64,000 nucleotides of DNA. It comes from a virus. Lineage: Duplodnaviria; Caudoviricetes. This document shows positions 32,307 through 35,603 of the stretch, piece after piece. Position 1 is the stretch's first letter, and each line of letters opens with the position of its first letter. The position numbers and the translations under genes were made by a program. The DNA is taken from IMG/VR virus record IMGVR_UViG_3300029305_004678, positions 64,001 to 128,000 of that record. One strand, given 5' to 3'. The notes below the pieces were generated by a model. The model worked only from the letters and a program-made list of their open reading frames with translations. It did no database searches and was not told where the DNA came from.

Positions 32307-32474
32307 TTATATTCCTTTTGTATCAATAACTATTACTCCAGGATAAACTAAAGAAATATCTATAGATTCAATTCGGAGTAGTTTAACTGAACCGCAGGCC
32401 GTTACGAATAACTCTTTGTCACCCTGAGATTCTTTTAATTCTTCAAGAGTTTTTATTACATCAGATATTTTCAT
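32307..32474 (-). CDS. Small hypothetical protein
   Basis: Probable start MKISDVI at 32474 after AAGGAG. Confidence 0.6.
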   Translation of the reverse strand: MKISDVIKTLEELKESQGDKELFVTACGSVKLLRIESIDISLVYPGVIVIDTKGI

Positions 32475-32540: not shown

Positions 32541-35500
32541 TCAGCAATAGCTTGCTTGAGCAGCTCTAATAGCTTCAACCTGTTCAGGTGTATATCTAGA
32601 TCTACTCAATTGAACAAGAGTATTCATATTGATAATAGTATCACGTTTGTGATTATATGAGTTATTGAACATACCATCATTCTTAGAAATATACATAGAA
32701 TTTCTAGGATTGAAGACATATTCTGCAGAACGTTGAAAATCTTTATTGATGATTAGCATGATGTTTACGAATGTTCACACGGGTCGTTAATCCGTGCAGT
32801 TCTCTTATGAACTTCTACATGTTTCCATGTAGGCCAGACTATATCTACATCTTCATTTATGGAGAATAAATGAAGAGCTTCCCACTTCGAACTCACTTGA
32901 GCTCTACTCCCATTTCAGGGATAGTCGTTGAACGTTCCTCATATAGAGGCTTCGCTGCTGATTAGCATATCTATATAAAGACTTAGCCTCCCAGCAATTC
33001 AAGAAGATTTCGATATAGTGTCACCACTATATAGCCCTAATTTAATTAAGGTATCTCCATCAAAGTCTGCAGCAAGACCTTCGAGTACGGCCACAGGCAT
33101 TCCCATAGTGAATCCTACAGAAATTTCTGTACAATACATTTGAAGTATTCCACCCCATAGTGTTCACGTAGGTCGTTAATCTACGTCGTTCTCTTATGAA
33201 CTGCTATATGTTTCCACATAGATCAGACTATATCTACATCTCTATACTTGGAGAAGCATAGAGAGCTTCCCACTTCGAACTCACTTGAGTTCTACTCCCA
33301 TTTCATGGATAGTCGTTGAACCTTCCTCTTATATAAGAGGCTTGGCTGCTGATTAGCATGCTCTTTTGAGTTTAGCCTTCCAGCAATTCAAGAAGATTTC
33401 AATACAATATTACTATTGTATAGCCCAGGTTTATTTAGGGATATGGTTGGATTTCTATTAATTAAAATCGGAATACCTCTATCATAGGATTTAATAATAC
33501 CTTCGATTATATTTACAATAATCGGATTAGGTTCATGCATGGATTCATAGAGCAGTTTATATGCATCATTATATCTCATGAAGTAAGACTTCTGTAAGAT
33601 ATTAATAATAGTCATCTGCAATAATCCACACAAACATGGATAACTCAGAGAAACCTCATCGATTCTCTTAGAAGGGTCTGGTGCTATAACAGAACGTGCT
33701 GTAAAGTTATCACGTGTTCACATAGGATCGCAACTCCTATGCAGTTCTCTTATGAACTTCTACATGTTTCCATGCAGGTCAGACTATATCTTAATCTCTT
33801 ATAAAGAGATTTTGGCATTTCGATTTAATAGGACTTACACTGGACCTTGATGCCTAACCCCATTAGCTTGGGCTCTACGTCCTTACGGACTAGTCGTTGA
33901 ACCTTTCTATTTAGATAATAGCAATCTTCAAATATAGACATCCAGTATCTTGATCGATATCTGGCTCTATATTATGGATCTTACAATTCATAATATCTTC
34001 GGGGAAGTCTTTTACATCTAGATATACCTTAGTGCAAAGCTCTTTAGCTTGTTCTAGCGTTATATCTTCAGAAGCTGTACCAAAGACATCATAAATATTA
34101 ATTATTTTATATTTGTATGGATTTTGTCTAACTCCCGGATTTTGGTGCTTAGCAAAATCTGAAAGAGTCATATACAACTTACTCATACATCTATCCTCCA
34201 AATAGACTTGGCTGCTGATTAGCATTATACAAATAATTGTAATATTATTTTCTCATATAAATATATAGCTATTGACATTTCTATATAAAGACAATATAAA
34301 GATATTAATATAAGAAGTAAAATTACTATTATAAAAACATAGTTTTTCTTCATATATTAAGCCTCCCAGCAATTAACCAAAAACATACTTAAAGATTGCT
34401 CTTTAAGCAGCCATTTTTACATAGCGTCCACCAAAGAGTTGTCTTATCATTAAGACTACCATAATTTTCATTATGGATTAGACTATATCTTATCCCTCAG
34501 CTTTACCTGCTAGGGATCCTCCCACTTCGGAGTCATAACTATTTATGACTCCTACTCTACTCGGTTACTTACAAGAGTTTTTCATCTTGCTACCCTTTCG
34601 ATAGTCGTTGAACGTTCTCTATTATATAGAGCTTCGCTGCTGATTAGCATGCTCTTTCGAGTTTAGCCTTCCAGCAATTCAAGAGGTTATTTTCTACGGA
34701 TTTCGCCGTAGGGATCCATAAGATAACTCTAGATCCTTTCTTGCCCGAGATAATCTTAGTAATCTCTTCATAAAGCTCCATGTACTTCATTTGGAGATCA
34801 AAAAGAAGTGTATCTTTAGGCTTTTTCTTTTTACCCATTTTTGTATTATCGTCGTTGATTTGGGCTACAAGTTTTACAATCAAATAATAGATTGCATTAG
34901 TTCCCTCATAATGAAGAACACCACCATCGAGACGATAAGGTCTTAAATGAATAGTAAAAACTGGAATAGATTGGATAAAGACTTTCTCTCTATCATTCAT
35001 GATACTCTCATAGTAATCACGTTTATTAGGCTTCTTATAGAGATAATACTCCATAATTTCATCAAATCTTTCATAGAAATCGAGCATACCGATTCCAAAG
35101 AATGGTTCATCCTTTGGCCTCTTGAAGTCAATTTCATGCCCATCCTCATCCTTCTTATTGACAGGAGTAATGATGTTTTTGAAGTCTTTCTCGCCAATAA
35201 AGAATGCAATAGACATATAAAGATTAGGATGAATAATATGATAAGGATCCTTGAGTACAGGATATCCAAACATACCGAAGTTATCACCTTTAAATGTGAC
35301 CTTAGTTCCACAAACGGGGCAAGTCTCACCCTGATTAAATCTGGCCTTAAGATGACCACAATCGCAACGATATCGATTACTACCTTCATCAATATCTTGT
35401 AGGGTGGGGCCATATTTGGTTGAGAAAATACCGTTAGGATCTTTAAGATCATACTTAATAGCTTTTGGAGAACTAATTATAAAACCATCACCTGATAGTA

Positions 35501-35603
35501 CATCACTGCGACGTTCTTTATCAATATTAATTCTCTCGAGTCTGGTCTCGTAATCGAAAGCTCCCGATCGCGAGTACCTTGTATTCACTTTTATTTCTGC
35601 CAT
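32541..35603 (-). CDS. RNA polymerase beta' N-terminal/catalytic subunit, 501 aa, in 5 exons (35603-34731, 34447-34423, 33710-33437, 33155-33049, 32767-32541)
   Basis: Exons sum to 1506 nt in one frame and restore RpoC motifs: Zn site CDCG...CPVC, ISGKKGS|IRQLFGGR-Y|NFTARSVI, INRNPTISL|GGILQM and GLAADFDGDTL|NIML. Confidence 0.92.
32768..33048 (-). mobile_element. Group I intron 4 (281 nt, no ORF)
   Basis: 5' exon ends in U paired to G in P1 (CCU|UAAU-UAA-AUUAGGG); P/Q AAUUGCUGG/AAUCAGCAG; R/S UCAACGACUA/GAUAUAGUC; terminal G at 32768; inserted 4 nt after the DFDGD codons. Confidence 0.92.
33156..33436 (-). mobile_element. Group I intron 3 (281 nt, no ORF)
   Basis: P1 CCU/GGG; IGS ACCU pairs with 3' exon GGGU (P10); full P,Q,R,S core; terminal G at 33156; inserted just after NRNPT. 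Confidence 0.9.
33911..34186 (-). CDS. Intron-encoded 91-aa soluble protein, not a homing endonuclease (alternative start 34225 gives 104 aa)
   Basis: GGAGG RBS 8 nt before ATG; sits in the P6a loop; no GIY-YIG, HNH, LAGLIDADG or PD-(D/E)xK motif visible. Confidence 0.75.
   Translation of the reverse strand: MSKLYMTLSDFAKHQNPGVRQNPYKYKIINIYDVFGTASEDITLEQAKELCTKVYLDVKDFPEDIMNCKIHNIEPDIDQDTGCLYLKIAII
34225..34353 (-). CDS. Intron-encoded 42-aa hydrophobic membrane peptide (absent from ORF track)
   Basis: MKKNYVFIIVILLLILISLYCLYIEMSIAIYLYEKIILQLFV; GGGAGG 8 nt upstream; the ORF fills the P5 insertion almost exactly. Confidence 0.55.
   Translation of the reverse strand: MKKNYVFIIVILLLILISLYCLYIEMSIAIYLYEKIILQLFV
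34272..34300 (+). promoter_or_regulatory. Antisense sigmaA/sigma70-consensus promoter inside intron 2
   Basis: TTGACA (34272-34277), 17-nt spacer, TATAAA (34295-34300). Confidence 0.45.
34448..34730 (-). mobile_element. Group I intron 1 (283 nt, no ORF)
   Basis: P1 GGAUCU/GGAUCC with U-G pair; P10 AGAGUUAUCUUAU pairs 12/13 with 3' exon AUAAGACAACUCU; P,Q,R,S core; terminal G at 34448. Confidence 0.93.

Follow-up and report, generated by a model that had tools for sequence, protein, structure and literature searches.

Bases 64001-128000 of a 159.8-kb virus record in IMG/VR (completeness estimate 65%) were analysed as one window of 64,000 nucleotides (nt). In this window a group I intron of 712 nt, called intron 2 below, splits a gene for a beta'-like subunit of RNA polymerase (RNAP). 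It contains two open reading frames (ORFs), one of 42 codons in loop L5 and one of 91 codons in loop L6. We consider it probable that the compact intron carries in L6 an accessory gene which does not encode an endonuclease, and that its L5 has undergone an AT-rich expansion specific to this lineage. The coordinates of all features are collected in the table.

The intron borders had been proposed in an earlier note made from the letters of the DNA (hereafter the sequence-only reading). They proved to be exact, and the splice junction is confirmed by an uninterrupted allele that occurs naturally. The last letter of the 5' exon is U and that of the intron is G (ggacgcU^a...gtG^ataac, the caret marking the borders), and when the exons are joined the frame is restored as GGRY^NFTARSV, matching a conserved beta' motif. 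The uninterrupted junction, ggacgct^ataacttt, is found in locus L022 and an intron-less allele also in L024; five more distant relatives, L024, L027, L031 and L035 among them, run through the intron-2 site as GGR(Y/F/C)(N/S)F(T/S). By a motif scan we observed that all the core motifs, P3/P4, P4', J6/7-P7 and P7', are present and in the correct order. With the Rfam model RF00028, only the 3' core of intron 2 was matched (33810-33762, 26.8 bits, E = 5.7e-4, at a relaxed threshold) because of the inserts in L5 and L6. Indeed, the orthologues of intron 2 match the full model at 43.5-48 bits, just below the 50-bit gathering score, the value of 48 bits belonging to the L011 orthologue, which has no L5 insert. 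The two large insertions claimed in comparison to sibling introns are both present, one in L5 and the other in L6. Judged by these features, intron 2 is an ordinary phage-type group I intron, predicted to be self-splicing.

The L6 insert is enclosed by a P6 stem of 7 base pairs (bp), and the orthologues conserve both this stem and the arrangement GGAGGA-N7-ATG. For the 91-amino-acid (aa) product, P0001, the ratio of nonsynonymous to synonymous substitution rates (dN/dS) was 0.10-0.36 in all 15 pairs (five orthologues with full codon alignments), at dS values of 0.2-1.1. In addition, the coding frame beats the other frames by 29 log units under the codon usage of this phage. A word-indexed search gave seven homologues with 45-90% identity, and an exhaustive search with a hidden Markov model gave further distant homologues of 64-103 aa. 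On this comparative evidence, the 91-codon ORF of L6 is a real gene under purifying selection. Conservation had been suggested as a check for both ORFs; the 91-aa gene stood it with the ratios given above, whereas the L5 insert, absent from all seven orthologous introns, did not. It had also been suggested that the 91-aa ORF can be reached by TAATG coupling from the stop codon of the 42-codon ORF. The overlap at 34225 is real but the N-terminal extension that the coupling would add keeps the frame in only three of eight loci, and the TAATG start is therefore not the true start of the L6 gene.

We then consider the protein itself. Searches of Pfam, PHROG and the PDB sequences gave zero matches, either for P0001 or for a 16-member profile of its family. 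No nuclease domain or motif (LAGLIDADG, GIY-YIG, HNH, His-Cys box, PD-(D/E)XK, EDxHD/Vsr) was found in P0001, the HNH_3 match of an ORF in a sibling intron serving as a positive control for the nuclease-domain search. Likewise, neither a toxin or antitoxin family nor an antitoxin DNA-binding domain was detected by Pfam/profile searches. AlphaFold2, used with a 16-sequence alignment, gave a small alpha/beta model with a predicted local distance difference test (pLDDT) score of 87 and a predicted template modelling (pTM) score of 0.77. With this model, the best match of Foldseek against the PDB had E = 0.4, and the top hit of a fold search independent of Foldseek (VIA) reached Z = 3.4, over 66 aligned residues with a root-mean-square deviation of 4.3; a nuclease fold could escape such searches. 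The model is weakly similar (template modelling score 0.5-0.57) to uncharacterised small phage proteins, and feature and shape searches of the ESM Atlas returned unnamed hypothetical clusters only. Among the 16 family members the invariant residues are L8 and Q15, and no acidic, His or Lys residue is invariant. The isoelectric point (pI) is 4.8-6.8 in all members and 4.96 in P0001, and a conserved loop, PGVRQNPYKYK, holds basic and aromatic residues. The negative results and the acidity speak against a role as nuclease, maturase or DNA-binding antitoxin and are compatible with a small protein-binding factor; the suggestion that the 91-aa ORF is not homing-endonuclease-like thus stands, on the sequence searches, the residues and the charge. 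An orphan family of at least 16 members is now defined, with a confident model, and is usable for functional work. A role like that of Ugi, the uracil-DNA glycosylase inhibitor, or as a DNA mimic is speculation for the acidic 91-aa protein, and such chains are absent among the fold-search matches. Two long proteins, P0014 (3291 aa) and P0020 (498 aa), were discarded as spurious homologues; both are internally repetitive, and the BLASTP hits of P0014 consist only of repeated 9-residue matches. Kinship of the family with the ORFs at L012 1450-1698, L012 574-813 and window 32307-32474 was also rejected (profile comparison probability <1%).

The family is found in L6 of intron 2 in eight genomes, that of the window and those of the metagenomic contigs L010, L011 and L013-L017. 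In L022 (276-945), a family gene with 53% identity lies in L6 of intron 1, the intron that precedes intron 2 in the window; 25 nt further downstream, the site of intron 2 carries no intron. In L012, a member occupies L6 in an intron of another gene that is likewise rich in introns. Free-standing family genes were found in L018, L019, L020 and L023, in each case with a terminator hairpin, then an AT-rich spacer and a Shine-Dalgarno sequence ahead of the gene. One member, P0018, lies within a tightly packed array of small genes, in contigs that reach 0.2-1 Mb. Pfam gave no context for the neighbours of the free-standing homologues, except a UvrD-like helicase fragment. No relatives of P0001 were found in IMG/VR or the JGI metagenomes by pattern and tblastn searches, and none of P0001 or P0018 in cultured phages. 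We also looked at a sample of the host gene drawn independently of the ORF, 13 IMG/VR loci with 41-75% identity, most of which are intron-free at these sites. Taken with the distribution of the family, this sample means that the introns are sporadic, that they may or may not carry the ORF as a passenger, and that the family is not intrinsically intron-bound. In one clade of the sample, L028 (4927-5215) and L030 (4930-5218), whose beta' gene is 52% identical, an ORF-less intron related to the intron-2 ribozyme lies at the intron-2 site or within a few codons of it. This intron closely resembles intron 2 in the segment after J6/7; its P6 is a short hairpin and its P5 is extended.

The model that we propose is the following. 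Intron 2 interrupts the conserved motif of the beta' subunit gene, and its L6, the usual slot of a homing endonuclease, holds a translation-ready cassette made of the P6 stem, GGAGGA, 7 nt and the ATG. In other phages the family consists of free-standing genes, and in this clade at least three different introns would have taken it into their L6. Exchange of the cassette between sibling introns would most likely proceed by recombination in the ribozyme segments, identical between these introns, on either side of P6. The 91-aa protein would be neither a nuclease nor a maturase nor an antitoxin; from the negative results and the charge we infer that it may be a stoichiometric protein binder. It would thus be a "moron"-type accessory gene, for which an intron in an essential gene may be a harmless parking place. 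As for the L5 insert, it would be a recent lineage-specific AT-rich expansion which folds into hairpins atop P5.

The content of the sibling introns bears on this model. The genome contains at least nine related introns, which split two essential genes. One of them carries in L6 a 367-aa ORF (G000:C1:23578-24681 = L021 2578-3681, minus strand) with matches to HNH_3 (4e-11) and NUMOD4. A canonical intron homing endonuclease is thus encoded in the genome, but not in any of the four RNAP introns of the window. Another, an intron of 582 nt (G000:C1:25723-26304, RF00028 51 bits), has in its L6 a tRNA-Leu(UAA) gene found by ARAGORN (G000:C1:25959-26046; L021 4959-5046, minus strand). A tRNA-Leu inside an intron is the reverse of the familiar layout, in which the intron is inside the tRNA-Leu. 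The L6 cargo of sibling introns in one jumbo phage is therefore of three kinds, an HNH endonuclease, a tRNA-Leu and a conserved small acidic protein. In this clade L6, and at times L5, acts as a cargo slot, which supports the view that intron loops in essential genes are safe sites for accessory genes. Phage group I introns are usually described as a ribozyme with a homing endonuclease.

The L5 insert is missing from all seven orthologous introns (L010, L011 and L013-L017), which all keep the 91-aa gene. The distance from P3/P4 to P4' is 21-24 nt in these orthologues, with L5 reading (A/T/G)A(T/A)ATA, versus 154 nt in the window; joined without the insert, intron 2 would read GGCT...ATGCTAATC. 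We detected no second copy of the insert in the genome and no tblastn relative, no homologue of the 42-aa peptide among 5.8 billion clustered proteins, and no exact 21-26-mers of the insert in IMG/VR or the JGI metagenomes. An inverted repeat forms the 5' third of the insert; it extends P5 and buries the ATG of the 42-codon ORF. The minimum free energy fold of the L5 region has z = -2.45, and 5 of 200 shuffles fold as well.

The open frame in this insert had been read as a gene that uses the GGGAGG of the ribozyme as its Shine-Dalgarno sequence. The spacing is real, but GGGAGG is conserved in all seven insert-less orthologues and is therefore not a ribosome-binding site evolved for the 42-codon ORF. 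When the insert was shuffled, an open frame of at least 42 codons appeared in 2.4-3.6% of cases on the sense strand and in 5.8-6.8% over six frames; in the insert itself, a second sense frame has a single stop. The likelihood margin of the 42-codon frame is -4.0, while for 42-codon windows of real genes the median is 17.4 and the 5th percentile 7.4; scores as low as this are reached by only 0.03% of these windows, and by 0.5% of the hydrophobic ones. The frame is also more AT-rich than every 42-codon window of the called genes. The product, P0002, has 42 aa, a grand average of hydropathy of 1.71 and one transmembrane-like stretch; such hydrophobicity is what the product of a T-rich sequence has by default. 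In all likelihood the 42-codon frame is fortuitous and would not be translated. Two sibling introns (L021 2168-2304 and 5100-5250, minus strand) share a structured non-coding P5 extension of moderate GC content which contains gagacgaaagtcagaaacaagtgatg and looks like a P5abc-type peripheral domain. These two siblings indicate that peripheral growth of P5 is normal in this intron family.

Features in and around intron 2 (window positions)
Feature	Position	Strand	Basis or remark
Group I intron 2, 712 nt, in the beta'-like RNAP gene	33711..34422	-	ordered core motifs, RF00028 3' core, intron-less allele
91-codon L6 gene, P0001, small acidic alpha/beta protein, orphan family	33911..34186	-	selection, codons, homologues
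Shine-Dalgarno GGAGGA, 7 nt before the ATG of the L6 gene	34194..34199	-	kept in all orthologues
P6 5' strand, TCTATTT	34200..34206	-	7 bp with AAATAGA 33912-33906; kept in orthologues
P6 3' strand, AAATAGA	33906..33912	-	overlaps the stop codon of the 91-aa gene; conserved
P5'/P4' strand, GCTAATCAGCAGCC	34210..34223	-	identical across sibling and orthologous introns
J6/7-P7, GTTCAACGACTA	33891..33902	-	motif scan
P8'-P7'-P9 3' core	33762..33810	-	RF00028 partial match
L5 insert, about 131 nt, 85% AT	34226..34356	-	this genome only; borders uncertain by a few nt
42-codon ORF, P0002, MKK and hydrophobic stretch	34225..34353	-	probably fortuitous
GGGAGG, P4/J4-5/P5 region, 8 nt upstream of the 42-codon ORF	34362..34367	-	ribozyme sequence
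Inverted repeat, 21-nt arms, 86% complementary, hairpin atop P5	34305..34360	-	repeat search
TTGACA (34272-34277), 17 nt, TATAAA (34295-34300), promoter-like	34272..34300	+	within the unique insert; antisense to the ORF start
25-nt micro-exon separating introns 1 and 2	34423..34447	-	contiguous with flanking exons in L010, L011, L024
Intron 1, 283 nt, ORF-less here	34448..34730	-	RF00028, 95.4 bits
Exon 1, beta' N-terminal-like RNAP subunit gene	34731..35603	-	tblastn
TATATTATA-N4-TGAG sites in the window	38572; 44188, 47869, 48584, 58567	+; - (last four)	others elsewhere in the genome

The genes that surround intron 2 are on the minus strand, and the ORF at 35603-34644 (minus strand) is the 5' portion of the beta'-like RNAP subunit gene. 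By tblastn, the product of exon 1 shares 31% identity with g274 of phiR1-37 as well as with the beta' subunit found in AR9, PBS1 and other jumbo phages of Bacillus related to them. The genome contains about 20 sites of the form TATATTATA-N4-TGAG, most of them directly upstream of genes. These copies are likely to be the early promoters of this phage; they resemble the early promoter of AR9, recognized by the virion RNAP and published as AAATATATATTAT-N6-G (PMC5312081). The beta' similarity and the AR9-like promoter motif place the phage in the AR9/phiR1-37 group; on these grounds, the source is an AR9/phiR1-37-type jumbo phage. The RNAP genes of this group are rich in introns (PMC12350094; 10.1101/2020.12.14.422802). 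No early promoter of AR9 type was found inside intron 2 on either strand, the best score with a position weight matrix being 4.6 versus 17-28 at the good sites of the genome. The idea that the L5 insert provides such a promoter for the L6 gene was rejected on these scores.

In the beta' gene, three full group I introns reach the gathering score of Rfam (34740-34459, 33446-33204 and 33058-32815; 85-96 bits). Across the relatives, at least three intron insertion points lie within about 45 nt of the conserved beta' motif. The metagenomic contig L012 (1-1766) is homologous to the second intron-rich gene. In its first intron, L5 contains an ORF of 70 aa or more, L6 the P0001-family gene, and the stretch from J6/7 to the 3' core two further ORFs (79 and 73 aa), in total four small ORFs across three loops. 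A short exon follows, and then a second intron with an 82-aa ORF in L6.

Several observations weigh against the model of a non-endonuclease L6 gene beside an expanded L5, and they are best considered together with the other explanations. The binder role is drawn from negative evidence and from charge. Homologous ORFs occur in two introns 25 nt apart in the same gene, together with free-standing copies, a distribution that homing-endonuclease genes typically show as well. The 42-codon frame coincides exactly with the insert, with an ideal spacing from GGGAGG and with MKK followed by a transmembrane-like stretch. Moreover, the related intron of L012 has a clearly protein-like ORF in L5, so that L5 is able to hold genes, and a young or foreign gene would likewise show neither homologues nor native codon usage.

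The first group of observations would fit a new factor of intron mobility, either a minimal homing endonuclease or a cofactor that directs a nuclease acting in trans (e.g. that of the HNH sibling) or stimulates recombination; we regard this as unlikely. L6 is the classical endonuclease slot, homologues are present in intron 1 (L022) and intron 2 within the same motif, others lie in an intron of another gene (L012) or are free-standing, and the sporadic introns at this locus among the relatives point to mobility, now or formerly. I-TevI and I-BmoI, with the free-standing seg and mob genes, have a distribution like that of the 91-aa family. However, the proteins are acidic and have only 84-91 aa, they have no invariant acidic, His or Lys residue and no detected nuclease family or fold, and a representative search without limit of length gave no fused or longer form. 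In addition, recombination in core segments that are identical would be enough to account for exchange among the sibling introns. There is thus a slim chance that the family is the smallest known homing endonuclease, or a nuclease-free inheritance factor which binds the empty site or recruits a nuclease in trans. If true, such a role would explain why homologues occupy the endonuclease slot of three introns and also exist as free-standing copies. A splicing cofactor, i.e. a maturase or RNA chaperone serving nine or more sibling introns, seems less likely still. At least nine related introns and a 25-nt micro-exon in the genome would give it work to do, and the PGVRQNPYKYK loop brings basic and aromatic residues, but the protein is acidic overall. 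The relatives L028 and L030, with their ORF-less intron, come from IMG/VR, where no family member was found, and the free-standing members are on contigs without a detectable intron, although these contigs are short.

As for L5, the 42-codon ORF might be a real and recent small membrane protein, involved in superinfection exclusion or holin- or toxin-like, and independent of the 91-aa protein. Its frame covers the whole insert with an ATG 8 nt past GGGAGG, the product begins with MKK and has one transmembrane-like stretch, an open frame of this length arises by chance in only 2-7% of shuffles, and L012 offers the example of a protein-like L5 ORF. We find this improbable, since the ORF is unique to this genome, its codon margin lies below 99.97% of real-gene windows and 99.5% of hydrophobic ones, its sequence is AT-richer than any 42-codon window of the called genes, T-rich sequence being hydrophobic by default, and its ATG is buried in a 21-bp hairpin. 

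The sequence-only reading had gone further and seen in the intron a toxin-antitoxin-like module of two genes with an antisense promoter, in which a 42-aa toxin and the 91-aa protein, an antisense RNA or both would form an addiction or exclusion system tied to the folding of the ribozyme. This is the least likely of the readings. It is true that two small ORFs of the same strand are adjacent, the first one being hydrophobic, that their TAATG overlap is real with an in-frame extension of the second, and that a near-consensus -35/-10 pair is antisense to the start of the peptide. But in the seven orthologues, in L022, in L012 and in all free-standing members the 91-aa gene exists without the peptide, which has no homologue. 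The promoter, described as "consensus", has a -10 hexamer, TATAAA, without the conserved last T, and for this reason was not listed by the promoter scan; sigma-70-like sites occur at the chance rate in the 3.5-kb region (16 found versus 14.9 +/- 4.0 expected from shuffles). AR9-type phages use their own polymerases and promoters unlike those of the host type (PMC5312081), and this genome has the AR9-like motif. With regard to type I systems, P0002 is a small hydrophobic peptide in the expected range (about 20-60 aa), but the toxin ORF is conserved in none of the seven orthologous introns. With regard to type II systems, neither a co-inherited pair nor a toxin fold nor an antitoxin DNA-binding domain was found in the searches, profile searches detecting no toxin family, and the 91-aa gene exists elsewhere without the peptide. 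Since the L5 insert is not conserved as an ORF, the toxin-antitoxin reading falls on a point that its proposers had themselves named as decisive. The striking claim of an intron maintained by a toxin-antitoxin system is unsupported and should be dropped.

The arrangement that we propose, an accessory gene in L6 of a compact intron, can be compared with known systems. In the td intron of phage T4, of group IA2, I-TevI is encoded in the P6 loop, and T4 also has introns in nrdB and nrdD. As in td, we observe a phage group I intron within a motif of an essential gene, an L6 ORF with its own ribosome-binding site and a sporadic presence; here, however, the ORF has 91 codons, its product is acidic and without a detected GIY-YIG, HNH or other nuclease signature or fold, and its relatives include free-standing small genes. 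I-TevI and I-BmoI are homologous endonucleases of different introns, about 21 nt apart in thymidylate synthase genes. This recalls the homologous ORFs found here in two introns 25 nt apart (intron 2 of the window and intron 1 of L022), but no nuclease domain was found here and the likeness is one of distribution only. Type I toxin-antitoxin systems such as Hok/Sok, Fst/RNAII and TxpA/RatA share with the L5 insert a hydrophobic ORF of about 40 aa whose start lies within an RNA hairpin; they differ in that the present element belongs to no conserved family, has an unsupported antisense promoter and is confined to one genome.

In AR9/PBS1-type phages, the early gene g190 lies with its own promoter inside the intron of g189, an RNAP gene (PMC5312081; PMC12350094; 10.1101/2020.12.14.422802). 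The phage group, the multiply invaded class of genes, the AR9-like early-promoter motif and the ability of an intron to carry an expressed gene are common to both cases; the published cargo consists of homing endonucleases, whereas here it is an orphan protein that is not nuclease-like, with no early promoter internal to the intron. The intron homing endonucleases of nucleus-forming jumbo phages have been discussed as weapons between co-infecting phages (review PMC12908238). There too, a jumbo phage contains a group I intron with an ORF, under circumstances that allow intron genes to influence competitors, but theirs is an endonuclease with a shown activity and the 91-aa protein has no nuclease features.

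Other cargo in group I introns is known from the IStrons, such as CdISt1 with its IS200/605 transposase, and from the rnl intron of fungal mitochondria, which carries rps3. Like these, intron 2 is a group I intron with a gene other than that of a homing endonuclease; unlike them, it is compact apart from its cargo, a single 91-codon gene in L6, which is neither a transposase nor an island of several kilobases.

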